A stretch of DNA of 5,399 bases from a virus. Lineage: Duplodnaviria; Heunggongvirae; Uroviricota; Caudoviricetes. The stretch is from IMG/VR virus record IMGVR_UViG_2671180636_000008; one strand, 5' to 3'. Under the pieces are notes generated by a model. That model saw only the letters and a program-made list of their open reading frames with translations, was not told the DNA's origin and searched no databases. Of the stretch, positions 274-5,020 are shown piece after piece (the stretch's first letter is position 1; the number at the start of each line of letters is the position of its first letter). Both the position numbers and the translations under genes were made by a program.

Positions 274-344
274 ACGTTTTTAAGCCCCTAATCAGGGTAA
301 CTTAGGGAATCGCCTTAAGTGGTCTAAAAAAGGGGTTAAAACGT
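274..344 (+). promoter_or_regulatory. imperfect long-range inverted repeat / structured element in the spacer upstream of CDS 376
   Basis: ACGTTTTTAAGCCCC (274-288) is complementary to GGGGTTAAAACGT (332-344) with two 1-nt bulges (about 13 bp). The enclosed segment carries CCCTA (286-290)/TAGGG (303-307) and CCCT (285-288)/AGGG (294-297) complementarity. No T-tract follows, so it is not a canonical intrinsic terminator. Function unknown. Confidence 0.3.
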
Positions 345-375
345 CTTAGAATGCGATACAGGAAGGATTTTAAAA

Positions 376-708
376 ATGAATTACCCAATGCAAATTATGG
401 TTGACCAAGAAACCATGAATTGGTTGATTGACCTGAACAGGTCGGGCTTTAATATCTATTTCATGCATTGTTTTGAAGCGTCAACGTATATTGACAAGCA
501 TATAATCAACGAAATTAAACTTGGTGACNNNNNNNNNNNNNNNNNNNNNNNNNNNNNNNNNNNNNNNNTGGAAGTAACAGACCCATACAATAAGCGCTTT
601 ATCATTGAAGAGTGCAATCGACTTGATTTAAGCCCTGAGCAATTATTGAAGCTGAATGTATTCTTGACCTATCAGAATGAATTAAACCCTTACAGCGAGG
701 TGATGTAA
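376..708 (+). CDS. hypothetical protein (110 aa; 13 codons masked)
   Basis: ATG 376 preceded by Shine-Dalgarno-like AGGAAGGA (359-366) with a 9-nt spacer; stop TAA 706-708. The N block 530-568 is 39 nt, so the frame is preserved. No recognisable family. Confidence 0.6.
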   Translation: MNYPMQIMVDQETMNWLIDLNRSGFNIYFMHCFEASTYIDKHIINEIKLGDXXXXXXXXXXXXXXEVTDPYNKRFIIEECNRLDLSPEQLLKLNVFLTYQNELNPYSEVM

Positions 709-809: not shown

Positions 810-838
810 TTGACAAATAACCTTAAGCATGAGATGAT
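810..838 (+). promoter_or_regulatory. candidate sigma70-type promoter (weak -10)
   Basis: TTGACA (810-815), 17-nt spacer, GATGAT (833-838; 4 of 6 matches to TATAAT). Oriented towards CDS 1184. Consensus -35 but poor -10; speculative. Confidence 0.2.
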
Positions 839-846
839 GGTAATAG

Positions 847-863
847 GGAAGAGCAACTCTTCC
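847..863 (+). promoter_or_regulatory. short perfect hairpin (7-bp stem, 3-nt loop)
   Basis: GGAAGAG (847-853) - CAA - CTCTTCC (857-863), exact reverse complements. No following T-tract on either strand. Sits just downstream of the candidate promoter. Confidence 0.4.
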
Positions 864-917
864 TGAATTAAACTATTAATCATTCTACATCAATGATAGT
901 TATTCTGAAAGGTGCAA

Positions 918-971
918 TGCTTTTCGCTACATGACCTTTCAGGTTAGTCTGAGAGGTCATCTCGAAAAGTA
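918..971 (+). promoter_or_regulatory. long imperfect hairpin (about 21 bp paired with an internal loop); candidate RNA processing or regulatory structure
   Basis: Inner stem ATGACCTTTCAG (931-942) / CTGAGAGGTCAT (949-960): 12 bp with one G-U pair, 6-nt loop GTTAGT. Outer stem TGCTTTTCG (918-926) / CGAAAAGTA (963-971): 9 bp with one G-U pair. The two stems are separated by an asymmetric internal loop (CTAC / CT). No flanking T-tract. Confidence 0.5.
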
Positions 972-1008: not shown

Positions 1009-1108
1009 AGATGTTTTAATTTCTTCACCTTATGAATGGCCCTTTATAAGAAATTATCTAGGGCTATTCAGCTTTTAAAAAGCATACTTGGCAAACCGCC
1101 TTTTAAGT

Positions 1109-1175
1109 CTCTTCTAAGTTTAGATAGGCTGTCAGGTGTGCTTTTTAAAAACTGAAACACTTCCGCTTAGAAGAG
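1109..1175 (+). promoter_or_regulatory. 10-bp inverted repeat whose 3' arm overlaps the ribosome-binding site of CDS 1184
   Basis: CTCTTCTAAG (1109-1118) is the exact reverse complement of CTTAGAAGAG (1166-1175), with a 47-nt spacer. The 3' arm covers part of the Shine-Dalgarno GAGGA (1173-1177), which lies 6 nt before ATG 1184. Confidence 0.35.
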
Positions 1176-1183
1176 GAAAAGCA

Positions 1184-2191
1184 ATGACAAATGATATTTA
1201 CATTAATGGCAAAGTGATTGATAGCTTCAGTGACTGGTCGCCACAGACTGAACATCCAGCTATCACTATTCAGCGTAAAGAGCATGACAAGCGTATTGAG
1301 CTTGAGCAATCGCTAAAGATGTCACCAAAAACAACCATCTTTGTGTCTCCTGAGCCTCAAGAGATGCCTGATATTTGCAAGAGTGAAGCATTACTTGAGC
1401 TTGAAAAGAAATATTACCAACTGCTGAAAGAACAGCGCCTTAGATTAGATGACGCTTACAGCAAAGTTACCTTGATGCAATCAGCTATTGAGCCGTCAGA
1501 ATTTGAGATTCAGGATGAATTGTCACAGAAACCATTTGTCTATTACCAATACGAAGATAATGATGGTTTTGGTACTTTTCAAGAAAACGTCGCAGCCGTG
1601 ATTAGTAGTCTTCCTGCTGGACATCGAATTGTGAAGATGGTTAAGGCATCAAGAGGTGCTGGTCAGTTTATTTACATGACTAATAAGAGCGATGAAGAAC
1701 TCGCTGAAATTGCTAGACAGAACATNNNNNNNNNNNNNNNNNNNNNNNNNNNNNNNNNNNNNNNNNNNNNNNNNNNNNNNNNNNNNNNNNNNNNNNNNNN
1801 NNNNNNNNNNNNNNNNNNNNNNNNNNNNNNNNNNNNNNNNNNNNNNNNNNNNNNNNNNNNNNNNNNNNNNNNNNNNNNNNNNNNNNNNNNNNNNNNNNNN
1901 NNNNNNNNNNNNNNNNNNNNNNNNNNNNNNNNNNNNNNNNNNNNNNNNNNNNNNNNNNNNNNNNNNNNNNNNNNNNNNNNNNNNNNNNNNNNNNNNNNNN
2001 NNNNNNNNNNNNNNNNNNNNNNNNNNNNNNNNNNNNNNNNNNNNNNNNNNNNNNNNNNNNNNNNNNNNNNNNNNNNNNNNNNNTCTAAGCAAAAGAATAG
2101 AATCAGGAAAATAGCTAAGTGGTGTCTTGATAAATTACCAAGTGATTGTCAGATTGTTGGTGAAGATGGTAATTATTATCTGGTTAGGTAA
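1184..2191 (+). CDS. hypothetical protein (about 335 aa if continuous across masked block 1726-2083)
   Basis: ATG 1184 with GAGGA 6 nt upstream; the ORF-track start at GTG 1136 is less likely. The frame is open up to the mask, and after it only this same frame is open; stop TAA 2189-2191. The visible N-terminal 180 aa includes a helical-looking stretch (EALLELEKKYYQLLKEQRLRLDD); no family recognised. One gene versus two genes across the mask cannot be decided. Confidence 0.5.
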   Translation: MTNDIYINGKVIDSFSDWSPQTEHPAITIQRKEHDKRIELEQSLKMSPKTTIFVSPEPQEMPDICKSEALLELEKKYYQLLKEQRLRLDDAYSKVTLMQSAIEPSEFEIQDELSQKPFVYYQYEDNDGFGTFQENVAAVISSLPAGHRIVKMVKASRGAGQFIYMTNKSDEELAEIARQNXXXXXXXXXXXXXXXXXXXXXXXXXXXXXXXXXXXXXXXXXXXXXXXXXXXXXXXXXXXXXXXXXXXXXXXXXXXXXXXXXXXXXXXXXXXXXXXXXXXXXXXXXXXXXXXXXXXXXXXXSKQKNRIRKIAKWCLDKLPSDCQIVGEDGNYYLVR

Positions 2192-2231
2192 CAAGATTGG
2201 TTGGGTGAAAATCTACGGGAGAGATTATCGA

Positions 2232-4496
2232 GTGATATCGGTAGTCTTTCCCTTTTTCGTATATGAACNNNNNNNNNNNNNNNNNNNNNNNNNNNNNNNN
2301 NNNNNNNNNNNNNNNNNNNNNNNNNNNNNNNNNNNNNNNNNNNNNNNNNNNNNNNNNNNNNNNNNNNNNNNNNNNNNNNNNNNNNNNNNNNNNNNNNNNN
2401 NNNNNNNNNNNNNNNNNNNNNNNNNNNNNNNNNNNNNNNNNNNNNNNNNNNNNNNNNNNNNNNNNNNNNNNNNNNNNNNNNNNNNNNNNNNNNNNNNNNN
2501 NNNNNNNNNNNNNNNNNNNNNNNNNNNNNNNNNNNNNNNNNNNNNNNNNNNNNNNNNNAAAGCATTTCAGTTTGCCACCAGATTTAATGACACTGTTAAT
2601 CCTCCAAAACAATCAAGGCAACCACGAATTAGCGGAAACAGAGCAATCACAGCAGCGCATAGCGTGAATATGTCTAAGCTTGGTGATATTAATCCGCTGA
2701 TGGCTAAAATGTTTAAAGCACAGTATTACAGCTTAAGCGGTAAGGCTGGTAATATTGGAAGTGAAAAGTTTAACGCTGAACTTGCAAAATTAAATCAATC
2801 TCTTCGTGAAACGTTGAATAAACTCAGGTCACAGACAAAGACCGCCAGCATTAACAATACAAGCGACGCATTTAATAATCTTGCAAGCAATGCGATTAAA
2901 TTATCTGGTGCATTTTACTCTGTGATGGGTGCTCTTAACGCTTACAAGGCCATTATGAATGCAGGTCTTAAACGAGATTCCGCACAGAGAGCCGCTAAGT
3001 TTGTACTTGGTGATAAAGCATCTGAAGCTGAGGTATTTATTCGAAATTTAGCAGACAAGACAGGTCTTAATATCTCTGAAGGGCTATCAAGCTACGCTAA
3101 GTTTGCAGCAGGTGCTCAGGGTTCTATGTCACAGGAACAGACACAGGAGCTATTTGGTAATGCAACGGCTATGAGTCGCTTAATGGGGCTTTCTAACGAT
3201 GAGCTAAACGGCATTTTGAGAGCATTTGAGCAGATGGCGAGCAAGGGCAAGATTCAGGCTGAGGAATTACGTGGGCAGTTAGGTGACCGTATGGCTGGTG
3301 CATTTAAGCTATTCGCTGAAGCATTGGGTATGACTGCTACAGAGCTTGATGCAGCCATGAAAAACGGGAAGGTACTTTCCGCTGATACTCTCCCTAAAGT
3401 CGCTAAACAGATGGGCTTGATGATTGATAAAGCGGGTGGCTGGGCTGAAGTCACTAAGAGCACTCAGACAGCTTTAGGTAAGTTAGCAAACAATTGGGAT
3501 GATACGATGGTGAAAATCTTCTCAGGTTCACAGGATGAGCTAAACGGCTTCTTATCCAGCCTGAGTAACCTGCTTAGTGAAATGGGGATGAGTTCTTCTA
3601 TCGCTGGTGATGCTATCGGTGGACTTATCGACATGCTTAAAGCTGGTGTAGATGATATTCGCGTATTCAATAACACCATTGAAGGCTGGATTTTACAGAC
3701 TAAGAAGTTCTATTACAGCCTTGATGACACTAAACGAAAACTACTTGATGAAGTCGGTGATGGTTTTATCAACTTCGTCAAAGGTCTTGCTATAGCGTTA
3801 TCTGCAAAGACGCTATTCAGTGCTACTACAGGGGTTATGAACCTGACAAGAGCAATCACAACGTTAGGTACAAGAGCTAATCAGGTGGCTGGTCAGGTAG
3901 CTACTGGTAAAGGTGGTGGAAAACTGAAAGGTGTAGCTGGTGGTGTAGGTAGTGCTCTTGCAATTGGTTATGCTGATGACGGTTATGAAACAGCGTTAGC
4001 ATTAGCTTCAATGATTCCACAAATCAGAGGCGTCACTCTTGGTTTATATGCATTGAAGAAAGCACTGGATTTTATGAATCAGGAAGTAGTCAAAAACGCT
4101 AATATGCATCCGTCTGGGGTAGGTGTGGGTAGTGACTTTAATCCCGTGTATTCTGGTGACCCTAATAAACCGAATATGATTAACGAAGGATGGAGTAGAA
4201 TTTTTAGTTCAATGGGTGAATTGTTTAACAATGCCACAATGAATATTGCAAGATTCAATCATCCAGAGTTAAACAACATTAAGCAAGATTCAGCATTAAC
4301 GAGTGCAGATATTCAGGGTCTGAGGGATGAAATTAGTGCTTTGAGTAAGCGTATTCAGGAGCCAGTGAAAGTTTCACTTGGTGGTCAAGTTGTCGTTCGA
4401 CCAGATGAACCATCTTTCTTTACTTTCAATCAATCAGCTAATGACCAGTTCACGCAGGATATGCTCTTAAGTTCAAGCTATCCAGAGGAAGAATGA
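2232..4496 (+). CDS. phage tail tape measure protein (start unresolved: TTG 2127, ATG 2166, GTG 2232 or inside masked block 2269-2558)
   Basis: Frame is continuous from 2115 to stop TGA 4494-4496 if the mask hides no stop. Conserved tape-measure core at about 3244-3413 (GKIQAEELRGQLGDRMAGAFKLFAEALGMTATELDAAMKNGKVLSADTLPKVAKQM). Gly-rich segment GQVATGKGGGKLKGVAGGVGSALAIGY and a hydrophobic stretch ALALASMIPQIRGVTLGLYAL. Position in a unidirectional late-gene-like cluster. GTG 2232 is preceded by GGGAGAG (2217-2223). The first unmasked in-frame ATG (2670) has no Shine-Dalgarno. Confidence 0.8.
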   Translation: MISVVFPFFVYEXXXXXXXXXXXXXXXXXXXXXXXXXXXXXXXXXXXXXXXXXXXXXXXXXXXXXXXXXXXXXXXXXXXXXXXXXXXXXXXXXXXXXXXXXXXXXXXXXKAFQFATRFNDTVNPPKQSRQPRISGNRAITAAHSVNMSKLGDINPLMAKMFKAQYYSLSGKAGNIGSEKFNAELAKLNQSLRETLNKLRSQTKTASINNTSDAFNNLASNAIKLSGAFYSVMGALNAYKAIMNAGLKRDSAQRAAKFVLGDKASEAEVFIRNLADKTGLNISEGLSSYAKFAAGAQGSMSQEQTQELFGNATAMSRLMGLSNDELNGILRAFEQMASKGKIQAEELRGQLGDRMAGAFKLFAEALGMTATELDAAMKNGKVLSADTLPKVAKQMGLMIDKAGGWAEVTKSTQTALGKLANNWDDTMVKIFSGSQDELNGFLSSLSNLLSEMGMSSSIAGDAIGGLIDMLKAGVDDIRVFNNTIEGWILQTKKFYYSLDDTKRKLLDEVGDGFINFVKGLAIALSAKTLFSATTGVMNLTRAITTLGTRANQVAGQVATGKGGGKLKGVAGGVGSALAIGYADDGYETALALASMIPQIRGVTLGLYALKKALDFMNQEVVKNANMHPSGVGVGSDFNPVYSGDPNKPNMINEGWSRIFSSMGELFNNATMNIARFNHPELNNIKQDSALTSADIQGLRDEISALSKRIQEPVKVSLGGQVVVRPDEPSFFTFNQSANDQFTQDMLLSSSYPEEE

Positions 4497-4508: not shown

Positions 4509-4561
4509 CTACGTGAATAAAGCAAAGTTAATACCCACACCAAAAATTATTTTTCACGTAG
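4509..4561 (+). promoter_or_regulatory. 9-bp perfect inverted repeat with 35-nt spacer immediately downstream of the tape measure gene
   Basis: CTACGTGAA (4509-4517) and TTCACGTAG (4553-4561) are exact reverse complements. The spacer is AT-rich and ends in TTATTTTT. Not a canonical terminator, since the T-run precedes rather than follows the 3' arm. Confidence 0.3.
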
Positions 4562-4592
4562 CTCACGCTTAACAGAGAAAATACATATATAT

Positions 4593-5020
<428 letters not shown>

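Follow-up and report, generated by a model that had tools for sequence, protein, structure and literature searches.

The element described here lies in the window, the whole stretch of 5,399 nucleotides that was analysed, and belongs to a widespread, phage-like serine-recombinase island of 12-15 kb with tape measure and baseplate genes. Of 5426 complete E. coli genomes, 465 (~9%) contain the island, which is likewise present in Citrobacter, Kluyvera, Salmonella and E. albertii. Carriers include NZ_CP148463 Z1323CEC0007, APEC O18 and E. albertii strains. A literature search returned no paper with these sequences or on this island. The tape measure and baseplate genes carry a CTACGTGAA-N35-TTCACGTAG element.

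Gene X and its leader

Gene X (Table 1) encodes a protein of 236 aa in the homologues that are unmasked. The RefSeq label 'transposase' for this protein is unsupported by domain and fold searches. Protein X has no match in Pfam, NCBIfam or PHROG and no homologue in GenBank phages, and its AlphaFold2 model, rich in long helices and coiled-coil-like, has no fold match in PDB or BFVD. Roughly 2500-3100 clusters of protein X exist. Phage and plasmid DNA searches, and IMG/VR scans with the proteins of loci L063 and L092, yielded nothing. Together with small genes ending at 2191, gene X forms a short operon that is closed by a terminator-like hairpin.

The promoter in front of the leader matches the sigma-70 type, and its motif, TTGACA-N16/17-(C/G/T)A(T/G)(A/C)AT, is kept in all leader classes. 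A promoter scan of the + strand, from the upstream genes to ATG 1184, showed no other promoter-like site. The leader presumably starts near 845, and the upstream arm of the inverted repeat discussed below should be part of the mRNA, because no other promoter-like site falls in 839-1183.

In related loci the leader is modular and 318-490 nt long, with the hairpin element as its last module. The leader module is not tied to protein X but recombines independently of it: two different N-termini of protein X are found behind class C leaders. The stem-loop at the 5' end occurs in variants such as AGAGAG/CTCTCT (locus L003) and GGGAGAG/CTCTCTC (L007), and a near-invariant GTGCAATGCTT precedes the mid-leader hairpin. 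The leaders also carry terminator-like hairpins. The G+C-rich hairpin is followed in most homologues by TTTTT(T), which gives it the look of an intrinsic terminator; in the window this U-run is interrupted (TATTCAGCTTTT). Its counterpart in L063 was called a terminator by the scanner, and a second hairpin of the same kind was called in L007 and L101. As a result of these upstream hairpins, few transcripts may reach the hairpin module.

Table 1. Features of the leader and operon of gene X, in the numbering of the window
Feature	Position	Strand	Basis or remark
Sigma-70-type promoter: TTGACA, 17 nt, GATGAT, TG-extended	810-838	+	promoter scan, 10/12 matches
5'-end stem-loop, GGGAAGAG CAA CTCTTCCT	846-864	+	predicted fold; changes on both arms in homologues
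Mid-leader irregular hairpin, base GCTTTTCG/CGAAAAGT	918-971	+	predicted fold; arm changes across classes
G+C-rich hairpin, GGCCCT (1038-1043)/AGGGCT (1060-1065)	1033-1070	+	predicted fold; 5' of the long hairpin
Long conserved hairpin	1067-1156	+	arms 1067-1093/1130-1156, 36-nt apical loop 1094-1129
Anti-SD segment, TCTCTTCTAAGT	1108-1119	+	in the apical loop; contains the upstream arm of the sequence-only reading
Linker from hairpin base to SD arm, 8 nt	1157-1164	+	length and sequence vary among homologues
SD arm, GCTTAGAAGAGG, with Shine-Dalgarno GAGGA	1165-1177	+	contains the downstream arm of the sequence-only reading
Gene X (protein X), visible part	1184-1725	+	remainder masked by N
Terminator-like hairpin and T-run	2217-2252	+	15 pairs (scan); kept in loci L009 and L010

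An inverted repeat over the Shine-Dalgarno sequence

The sequence-only reading had pointed to an inverted repeat in front of gene X (its gene 1184), and rereading of the sequence and a repeat search bear this out: CTCTTCTAAG (1109-1118) and CTTAGAAGAG (1166-1175) show 100% complementarity and lie 47 nt apart. The overlap that it had claimed with the Shine-Dalgarno (SD) sequence is present as well, GAGGA at 1173-1177 being separated by a 6-nt spacer (1178-1183) from the ATG at 1184-1186. Terminal G-U pairs (U1108-G1176 and U1119-G1165) lengthen the helix to 12 contiguous pairs (1108-1119/1165-1176), and this 12-bp helix covers the GAGG of the SD. The CTTAG part of the SD arm is dispensable for SD function, yet it is kept in nearly all type-1 leaders.

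By itself a 10-bp repeat is unremarkable, since 41% of dinucleotide-shuffled windows contain at least one exact 10-bp inverted repeat with a gap of 3-100 nt (0.63 expected per shuffled window). A repeat that touches the 18 nt before the start codon of gene X was found in 0.6% of local shuffles. The decisive support for the repeat is comparative, and comes from the sequences of related loci that are described below.

Several additional elements were considered and dropped. The segment 915-925 is complementary to the start-codon region, where the SD-ATG spacer is not conserved. The only candidate for an anti-anti-SD copy in the leader is the 5' stem-loop, which shares GAAGAG/CTCTTC and is lost in class C. 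No second target sites for the anti-SD loop were found in the readable part of the window; an exact CTTAGAAGAG at 2235 in L009, located in a stretch free of ORFs, was put down to chance. Translational coupling, one of the modes of control that had been suggested, finds no support: the only ORF that crosses the structure (1036-1155, 39 aa) is not conserved, and its ATG is absent from most leaders of class A and from every other class.

The upstream arm is displayed in the loop of a long hairpin

What the sequence-only reading had overlooked is the location of its upstream arm, within the apical loop of a 27-bp hairpin. This hairpin dominates every predicted (MFE) fold and consists of 23 Watson-Crick pairs, three G-U pairs and one C-A mismatch, the lower half of the stem being A/U-rich. 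It was found in every homologous leader examined (~110 loci, of which 70-81 are distinct after de-duplication), with stems of 20-32 pairs that form near-continuous duplexes in all classes. When 27 sequences from five classes were aligned structure-blind with MAFFT, 12 of the 27 pairs were changed on both sides and 92.5% of the cells paired; for the whole structure the figure is 90.1%, against 40-52% when the partners are slid. RNAalifold yields a 16-pair core, nine pairs of which are compensatory, and leaves the apical loop unpaired.

The mean fold energy amounts to -34.1 kcal/mol for the + strand against -22.7 kcal/mol for the - strand, the + strand fold is the more stable one in 66 of 67 leaders, and G-U pairs number 322 (+) against 63 (-). 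Since both fold energies and G-U pairs are strand-asymmetric, the element is a + strand RNA structure, and a structure on the - strand or at the DNA level was rejected. The possibility that the long hairpin is an intrinsic terminator was rejected: it has no U-run (AACACTTCC follows directly after 1156), its lower stem is A/U-rich and not G+C-rich, and it was not called by the terminator scan. Rfam gave no relevant match, neither in the window (E <= 10) nor in six homologous loci (E <= 1), which represent classes B, C, D and E, and the weak miRNA matches in the window merely reflect the long hairpin. A tRNA/tmRNA scan of the window found none.

The 27 pairs in the window exceed the near-continuous duplex of at least ~20 bp that serves as the length criterion for RNase III substrates. 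Based on this analogy, the hairpin might be a processing site whose cleavage detaches the anti-SD loop and thereby activates translation or alters the stability of the gene X mRNA, the pairing between loop and SD being a mere lock before processing. Near-continuous duplexes of 20-30 bp, as seen in all classes, go far beyond what is needed to present a loop, and it is base pairing rather than sequence that is conserved. However, the conserved G-U pairs and the upper-stem mismatch could equally prevent cleavage. We regard processing as an unlikely main role, and one that is compatible with the explanation favoured below rather than exclusive of it. RNase III-dependent leaders are those of lambda N, the T7 early mRNAs and E. 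coli adhE. These share with the element a long duplex directly upstream of the ribosome-binding site (RBS), with structure-dependent accessibility, but the RBS there usually lies in or adjoins the duplex, whereas here it would be paired to the loop of the duplex.

Complementarity of loop and SD region across leader classes

The comparison covered ~110 related loci from Escherichia, Citrobacter, Kluyvera and Salmonella, and the complementarity of loop and SD region is kept across the leader classes, as 10-13 contiguous bp with an arm-to-arm spacing of ~38-55 nt. In classes A, B, D and E a loop with (C)TCTTCTAAG(TGT) is matched by a flank with (ACA)CTTAGA(A)G(A)GG. In class C, which comprises the E. 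albertii clade together with Citrobacter and Kluyvera, both arms are fully swapped: the loop reads (A)TTCACCTC(GTG) and the flank (TGT)GAGGTGAA(T). Cognate loop-by-flank duplexes are predicted at -13 to -20 kcal/mol, compared to -3 to -12 kcal/mol when class C is combined with the other classes, and the shuffled-loop control for these duplexes gave p = 0.0005-0.02.

Smaller changes follow the same pattern. U1108 is replaced by C in at least ten class A leaders, which turns a U-G into a C-G pair, and in the Salmonella/Citrobacter loci L101-L103 a loop A is replaced by G, turning A-U into G-U; pairing is kept in both cases. Wobble-type changes are tolerated only in the sense of the + strand RNA. 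In class A both arms are nearly invariant and the neighbouring loop and linker positions vary, and the GUGU/ACAC extension of the helix is restricted to classes B, D and E. The helix is broken in two metagenomic leaders, by a C-A mismatch in L026 and by a 1-nt deletion in L054. In the MAFFT alignment class C and two class D rows are out of register for the loop-SD helix, so that the 85% of paired cells obtained there is an underestimate; the helix was scored by per-sequence duplex searches instead of by MAFFT columns.

One could object that the pairing is irrelevant, with the arms conserved for SD function, as a protein site in the loop, or at the DNA level as a cruciform or recombinase site; another departure would be that the pairing exists and activates, as in the IncI-alpha/IncB plasmids. 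The arms are of low complexity (pyrimidine-rich vs purine-rich), so that chance complementarity is likelier: with 200 shuffled loops the longest helix reaches 11.8 bp on average, the observed median being 12. Moreover, only two fundamentally different types of anti-SD/SD sequence exist, and the full swap therefore counts as one evolutionary event. On the other side, the arms of class C are still complementary although the swap gave them entirely different sequences, the restriction of wobble-type changes to the RNA sense speaks against a DNA-level role, and the variable arm spacing argues against a dimeric DNA-binding site.

The activating variant has a precedent in the upstream hairpin of repZ/repA (PK-repBA, RF01089), the loop of which pairs at the RBS of the downstream gene, just as is predicted here; in these plasmids the same loop is also targeted by an antisense RNA. 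In the plasmids, however, the activating pseudoknot is located next to the SD, whereas in the leaders studied here it is GAGG or GAGGTGA itself that the 3' arm covers. As the SD itself is covered, initiation is expected to be blocked rather than helped. The PK-repBA model does not match at the element, and its sole match in the window (282-412) scores 17.4 bits, far below the gathering score of 45. Taken as a group, these objections seem improbable to us. The loop-SD pairing is well supported by the comparison of sequences, which also supports the proposal of translational control of gene X through pairing of its SD region with the upstream segment.

Energetics and topology

As a nested helix the pairing is costly. 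Forcing it in the window gives -27.5 instead of -43.3 kcal/mol, a difference of +15.8 kcal/mol, and destroys the 27-bp hairpin; the penalty lies between +14 and +16 kcal/mol for classes A and B, and between +4 and +7 kcal/mol for classes C, D and E. Given this cost, the loop-SD helix is only possible as a loop-to-flank (pseudoknot-like) or an intermolecular contact. The SD-occluding helix of the sequence-only reading thus stands as a pairing, through its conservation and covariation, but not as a free-standing stem-loop, which would exclude the covarying hairpin. Opening the anti-SD segment takes 1.9 kcal/mol in the window and, for most classes, 0.4-3.8 kcal/mol; net of opening costs, the loop-flank duplex is worth between -6 kcal/mol (the window) and -12 kcal/mol. 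When this duplex is absent, most classes have an unpaired SD.

Taken literally, the sequence-only reading describes a simple 10-bp stem-loop (1109-1118/1166-1175) that acts as a conformational switch or thermosensor. Its complementarity is exact, and the A/U-rich lower half of the long stem could melt to allow it. Yet it competes with the covarying hairpin at the energetic cost given above, and the long hairpin is transcribed first. A thermosensor is unlikely because the helix is contiguous over 10-13 bp and strong, the bare arm-to-arm duplex amounting to -11 to -18 kcal/mol, whereas known RNA thermometers such as ROSE and FourU rely on a short, weak and mismatched SD helix; neither was matched in the Rfam scans of the window and the six loci. 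This model appears to us highly improbable.

A pseudoknot in cis is feasible, if strained: by geometric estimate, a linker of 8-10 nt and 8-10 nt of loop (3' of the anti-SD) have to span a stem of 22-27 bp. Loops that pair with an SD-containing 3' flank, as predicted here, are also used by the preQ1-II and SAM-II riboswitches and by the operators of r-protein S15 and T4 gene 32. Their pseudoknots are of the compact H-type, have short stems and contain a pocket for a ligand or protein, whereas stem 1 of the present element would have 22-30 bp, its loops are long and variable outside the anti-SD, and no Rfam match was found.

A model for the control of gene X

On balance, the sequences favour a model in which the anti-SD hairpin loop represses translation of gene X through loop-to-flank pairing in cis. 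We infer that the loop-SD helix forms in vivo, in cis, and represses translation, as well as the means of its release. The mRNA of gene X would start at the promoter in Table 1, giving a leader of ~340 nt, and the last module of this leader, the long hairpin, would display an anti-SD of 10-12 nt in an otherwise unstructured loop. The long hairpin would be transcribed and folded before the SD emerges. Its loop could then pair with the SD region, 8 nt past the hairpin base, in a long-range, pseudoknot-like helix that would hide GAGG from the 30S subunit and keep translation of X low. Hairpin and upstream terminator-like hairpins would together silence the X operon until the hairpin is removed or opened, candidate means of release being a cut by RNase III in the stem, which has at least 20 bp, or a phage or island factor.

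The same pairing could also operate in trans. The CI RNA of satellite P4, which is related to c4, is a same-transcript regulator with a loop complementary to an RBS. In the immI operon of P1/P7 (c4-icd-ant) the c4 regulator lies upstream of its target on the same transcript and its loop occludes the RBS, with specificity differing by matched changes in loop and target (PMC5320573). The element resembles c4 and CI in several respects: it is encoded on the same strand and transcript, directly upstream of its target; its loop is complementary to the RBS (1108-1119 vs 1165-1176) in all classes; specificity variants exist with matched changes in loop and target; and it is carried by a mobile element of enterobacteria that is temperate or of satellite type. 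By analogy, the hairpin might be cut out as a stable RNA of ~90 nt that binds the SD of X elsewhere, be it on its own later transcripts or on those of an incoming related island, and would thereby serve as an immunity factor, with the two anti-SD/SD types as heteroimmune groups.

Besides the shared layout and the two matched specificity types, a trans-acting RNA would be free of the steric strain of the cis pseudoknot. Stable antisense RNAs typically have a long, stable and covarying stem such as this one, the leader module recombines independently of protein X, and the consensus promoter looks constitutive. Against this, there is no sequence or structure homology to c4 (the RF01695 covariance model matched neither the window, searched at E <= 10, nor the six homologous loci, searched at E <= 1), and one 22-30-bp hairpin with a single recognition loop replaces the three stems and the loops a' and b' of c4. 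Nor is an RNase P substrate evident: no CCA or acceptor-like end is conserved, ACCA following the hairpin only in class B, and the element may act purely in cis. A second target site is lacking in the readable window. We therefore consider action in trans as a same-strand antisense RNA a possible but rather unlikely alternative to repression in cis.

The more specific proposal that the hairpin is an immunity RNA that silences gene X in trans, an independently arisen functional analogue of P1 c4 and P4 CI, is doubtful. Were it to hold, the island could represent an undescribed family of satellite-like elements of enterobacteria, with a serine recombinase, tape measure and baseplate genes and no capsid genes. 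The RNA could be processed from a constitutively made, terminator-studded leader, X could be the switch of the island, and the matched loop/SD types UCUUCUAAG and UUCACCUC could define heteroimmune groups.

Implications

Occlusion of the SD by RNA pairing is a well-known principle, and the element looks like a form of it that has not been catalogued; for this reason its value lies in a new, testable example and not in a new concept. If the loop-SD pairing works as we infer, the leader of gene X is an uncatalogued structured leader that is backed by covariation, and it appears to gate the sole short operon with a consensus sigma-70 promoter that is seen in this part of the island. If true, it would add a second architecture to the few same-transcript regulators that display an anti-SD in a loop (c4 and CI). 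The finding offers a handle on what this uncharacterised island does and on what switches it on.

The long hairpin around the 5' arm of the inverted repeat

The sequence-only reading held that a 10-bp inverted repeat would hide the ribosome-binding site of gene X (start codon ATG 1184) unless an alternative structure forms, suggesting translational control by coupling, a thermosensor-like element or a riboregulator. The exact 10-nt complementarity reaching the Shine-Dalgarno (SD) element is correct, as confirmed by sequence reading and by a repeat finder (entry I11: 10 nt, 100% complementary, 47 nt between the arms). One G-U pair at each end, U1108-G1176 and U1119-G1165, extends the helix to 12 contiguous pairs, which span the GAGG of the SD. 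Taken alone the repeat is only mildly unusual: a dinucleotide-shuffled window contains on average 0.63 exact 10-bp inverted repeats whose gap is 3-100 nt, and in 0.6% of local shuffles one touches the 18 nt before ATG 1184.

The 5' arm falls within a larger inverted repeat (1067-1093/1130-1156; see the table). All folds of the region contain this long hairpin and none contains the 10-bp helix; the fold energy is -44.4 kcal/mol (z = -3.8) for 1050-1200 and -114.5 kcal/mol (z = -6.8) for the whole leader (840-1210). When the nested helix is forced the long hairpin is lost, at a cost of +15.8 kcal/mol in the window and +14 to +16 kcal/mol in leader classes A and B, which speaks against a plain stem-loop. 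Since the nested form destroys the hairpin, the 10-12-bp helix can only form between the apical loop and the sequence 8 nt past the hairpin base (pseudoknot-like), or between two molecules.

Features of the leader of gene X and of the downstream genes
Feature	Position	Sequence or composition	Remark
Promoter-like site	810-838	TTGACA-17-GATGAT, TG-extended	10/12 matches (scan)
5' stem-loop	846-864		first leader module
Conserved hairpin	918-971		second leader module
G+C-rich hairpins		GCCCT...AGGGC + U-runs	third module, one or two per leader; terminators according to the scanner in L063, L007 and L101
Long hairpin	1067-1093/1130-1156	27-nt arms, 36 nt between	last module, 5' strand starts within U-run; repeat finder, entry I1
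5' arm	1109-1118	CTCTTCTAAG	sequence read
3' arm	1166-1175	CTTAGAAGAG	sequence read
SD of gene X	1173-1177	GAGGA	6-nt spacer, then ATG at 1184
Tape measure gene	2127-4496		PF20155; PHROG 4036, E = 6e-73
Terminator-like hairpin	2217-2252		closes short operon
Shared upstream element	4509-4575		L009 7480-7560, 10935-11000; L010 15800-15870, 19285-19350
'Baseplate' gene	starts 4653		PHROG 3721

With protein X as the query, about 110 loci were collected from IMG/VR, GTDB genomes, metagenomes, RefSeq E. coli, and Citrobacter, Kluyvera, Salmonella and E. albertii assemblies. The ~120 nt upstream of the start codon could be divided into five sequence classes (A-E), all of which have the long hairpin. 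In a structure-blind MAFFT alignment (A3) of 27 representatives, 12 of the 27 hairpin pairs were altered on both sides and 92.5% of the hairpin cells were paired. For the whole structure 90.1% of cells were paired, against 40-52% with the partners slid by 1-3 columns, and none of 500 shuffles reached the observed covariation score. RNAalifold independently returned a 16-pair core with nine compensatory pairs and left the apical loop unpaired. The + strand fold was the more stable one in 66 of the 67 distinct leaders (mean -34.1 vs -22.7 kcal/mol for the - strand), with 322 G-U pairs against 63. The hairpin structure belongs to the + strand RNA, and a role at the DNA level or on the - strand is rejected on the grounds of this strand asymmetry. 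Judged by the comparative sequence evidence, the feature is a real, conserved RNA element. It matches no Rfam family, and a literature search returned no matching paper text or sequence string.

Pairing of the loop with the SD region

In classes A, B, D and E the loop carries the segment (C)TCTTCTAAG(TGT) and the SD region reads (ACA)CTTAGA(A)G(A)GG; the SD variants CTTAGAAGAGG, CTTAGAGG, CTTAGAAGG and CTTAGAAGGG occur, and 9-13 contiguous pairs are retained in all. In class C, which comprises an E. albertii clade (L063, L106-L109) and Citrobacter/Kluyvera loci (L092, L098), both segments are wholly different, (A)TTCACCTC(GTG) in the loop and (TGT)GAGGTGAA(T) at the SD, and they are still complementary over 8-11 pairs. 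Cognate loop-by-flank duplexes reach -13 to -20 kcal/mol, class C loops with the flanks of other classes -3 to -7 kcal/mol, and the loops of other classes with class C flanks -4 to -12 kcal/mol; loops shuffled in base order served as the control (p = 0.0005-0.02).

Smaller changes also agree with a maintained pairing. U1108 is replaced by C in at least ten class A leaders (U-G becomes C-G), a loop A by G in L101-L103 (A-U becomes G-U), and an extension of the helix, GUGU/ACAC, is found in classes B, D and E only. Within class A both arms are almost invariant, and the linker and the loop positions flanking the anti-SD (the loop segment complementary to the SD region) vary freely. Two metagenomic leaders have a weakened helix, L026 by a C-A mismatch and L054 by a 1-nt deletion. 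All of this evidence carries a caveat: just two fundamentally different arm sequences exist, which makes the complete arm swap a single event, and the arms are of low complexity. The loop-SD pairing has good comparative support and we consider it quite probable. The core of the earlier proposal, sequestration of the ribosome-binding site, is backed by covariation, but the architecture differs from the one proposed, the anti-SD being a segment of the apical loop of the long, conserved hairpin.

Leaders with the class C anti-SD TTCACCTC precede two forms of protein X, with the N-termini MENPIYVNG... and MIRNEHEKE... (L092, L098 vs L063, L106-L109); this means that leader module and gene recombined independently of each other.

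Opening the anti-SD segment in the loop costs 1.9 kcal/mol in the window and 0.4-3.8 kcal/mol in most classes, and in most classes the SD region would otherwise stay unpaired. Net of these opening costs, and with the pseudoknot penalty not included, the loop-flank duplex amounts to -6 (window) to -12 kcal/mol. By our own estimate, a stem of 27 bp (~76 Å) has to be bridged by the 8-nt linker together with the 10 loop nucleotides that lie 3' of the anti-SD. These 18 nt should reach only when extended, so that a contact in cis is possible but strained; any breathing of the A/U-rich lower stem would relieve the strain. It does not arise for a contact in trans, and the contact may act within one molecule or between molecules.

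In the best-supported reading the apical loop would serve as an anti-SD and hold down translation of X, the pairing being repressive because it covers GAGG or GAGGTGA. The stem, at least 20 bp long, may be an RNase III site through which the lock is undone. Translational coupling was rejected, since the uORF at 1036-1155 is not conserved among the homologues. A thermosensor is unlikely, the helix being too stable and contiguous, as is repZ-type activation, because the arm covers the SD itself.

By analogy, the closest functional parallels to the element would be the c4 RNA of P1/P7 and the P4 CI RNA. The latter is a same-transcript regulator directly upstream of its target, with loops occluding the ribosome-binding site. 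The c4 RNA is encoded just upstream of its target in the same transcript and its loops occlude the ribosome-binding site (PMC5320573); in the specificity variants of P1/P7 the loop and target changes are matched (PMC5320573). The element is not a c4-family member: RF01695 found no match in the window (E <= 10) or in six homologous loci (E <= 1), and we see one hairpin with one loop and no evident RNase P features, whereas the c4 family has three stems and two loops. There is also a resemblance to SD-sequestering pseudoknots, but the stem is far longer here, and a conserved pocket and a model match are lacking.

Leader and promoter

The site at 810-838 is the sole + strand promoter-like site ahead of gene X, so the 5' arm should be part of the mRNA. 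The site is kept in all leader classes. The homologous leaders are 318-490 nt long and modular, and they differ by whole modules being present or absent (the first terminator-like hairpin, 30-60-nt inserts). In the window there is a single GCCCT...AGGGC-type hairpin (1033-1070), with an interrupted U-run, and an exact tandem duplication of TTTGAATCCTT (986-1007), which is single-copy in the aligned homologues.

Three further complementarities were observed. The repeat 735-748/813-826 (14 nt, 93% complementary) has one arm in ORF 709-786, which is small (25 aa) and hydrophobic, and the other in the promoter's -35 and spacer; it is probably due to chance, the complementarity looking lower by eye in homologues. 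Within the conserved GTGCAATGCTT motif, CAATGCTTTTC (915-925) is complementary at 10 of 11 positions to GAAAAGCAATG (1176-1186, start codon included), probably a coincidence since homologues show no conservation of the spacer between SD and ATG. Finally, the 5' stem-loop (GGAAGAG/CTCTTCC) shares GAAGAG/CTCTTC words with the SD and anti-SD arms (1165-1176, 1108-1119), which makes alternative pairings possible in classes A and B; class C lacks this resemblance.

The island and gene X

The window belongs to a phage-like island of Escherichia type. Of 5426 complete E. coli genomes, 465 have a match to region 700-1725 (80-95% identity), chromosomal in every case; among GenBank phages and PLSDB plasmids there is none. 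The complete-genome comparison places the island segment at up to three sites per E. coli genome, and the metagenomic contig OOBX01000469.1 has two copies ~11 kb apart with identical leaders (L055/L054). In annotated genomes the island measures ~12-15 kb, with a large serine recombinase at its boundary; the insertion site is yecE in L010, and in L009 the island adjoins ymdF and rutG. Over these two genomes it encodes small ORFs, an HNH gene, gene X, one or two small genes, the tape measure and the baseplate gene; an AP2/ERF-type regulator is annotated only in L010.

Protein X, 236 aa long where unmasked, matches no Pfam, NCBIfam or PHROG model and has no relative among GenBank phages. Long helices dominate its AlphaFold2 model (pLDDT 79), for which solved and predicted structures gave no significant fold match. 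The RefSeq name 'transposase' is backed by no family model, structure or GenBank phage protein. At 1184-2191, the ORF that crosses the masked stretch is really two or three genes, X and then small ORFs ending at 2191 (cf. L009 6473-7183).

The baseplate-like gene (4653-5020) has a 74-nt deletion after codon 49 relative to L009, which shifts the frame to a stop at 4803-4805 and makes it a pseudogene in this window. Ahead of it CAAAGGCTTGG (4591-4601) pairs exactly with CTAAGCCTTTG (4625-4635) in a hairpin of 10 bp or more, and CCTTTG (4630-4635) is also complementary to the CAAAGG of the SD AAAGGAG before ATG 4653. In this three-part arrangement (4591-4652), kept in L009 and L010, the SD would be exposed when the upstream hairpin forms and hidden when the downstream pairing does. 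The tape measure and baseplate genes have an upstream element in common (CTACGTGAA, ~35 nt, TT(T)CACGTAG, then CTCACGCTTAA), probably an operator or promoter that these structural genes share; gene X has nothing resembling it upstream.

The leader of gene X appears to present a known regulatory principle, sequestration of the ribosome-binding site, in a new form, with the anti-SD carried by the long hairpin's loop, and it does so in an island that is uncharacterised yet common.
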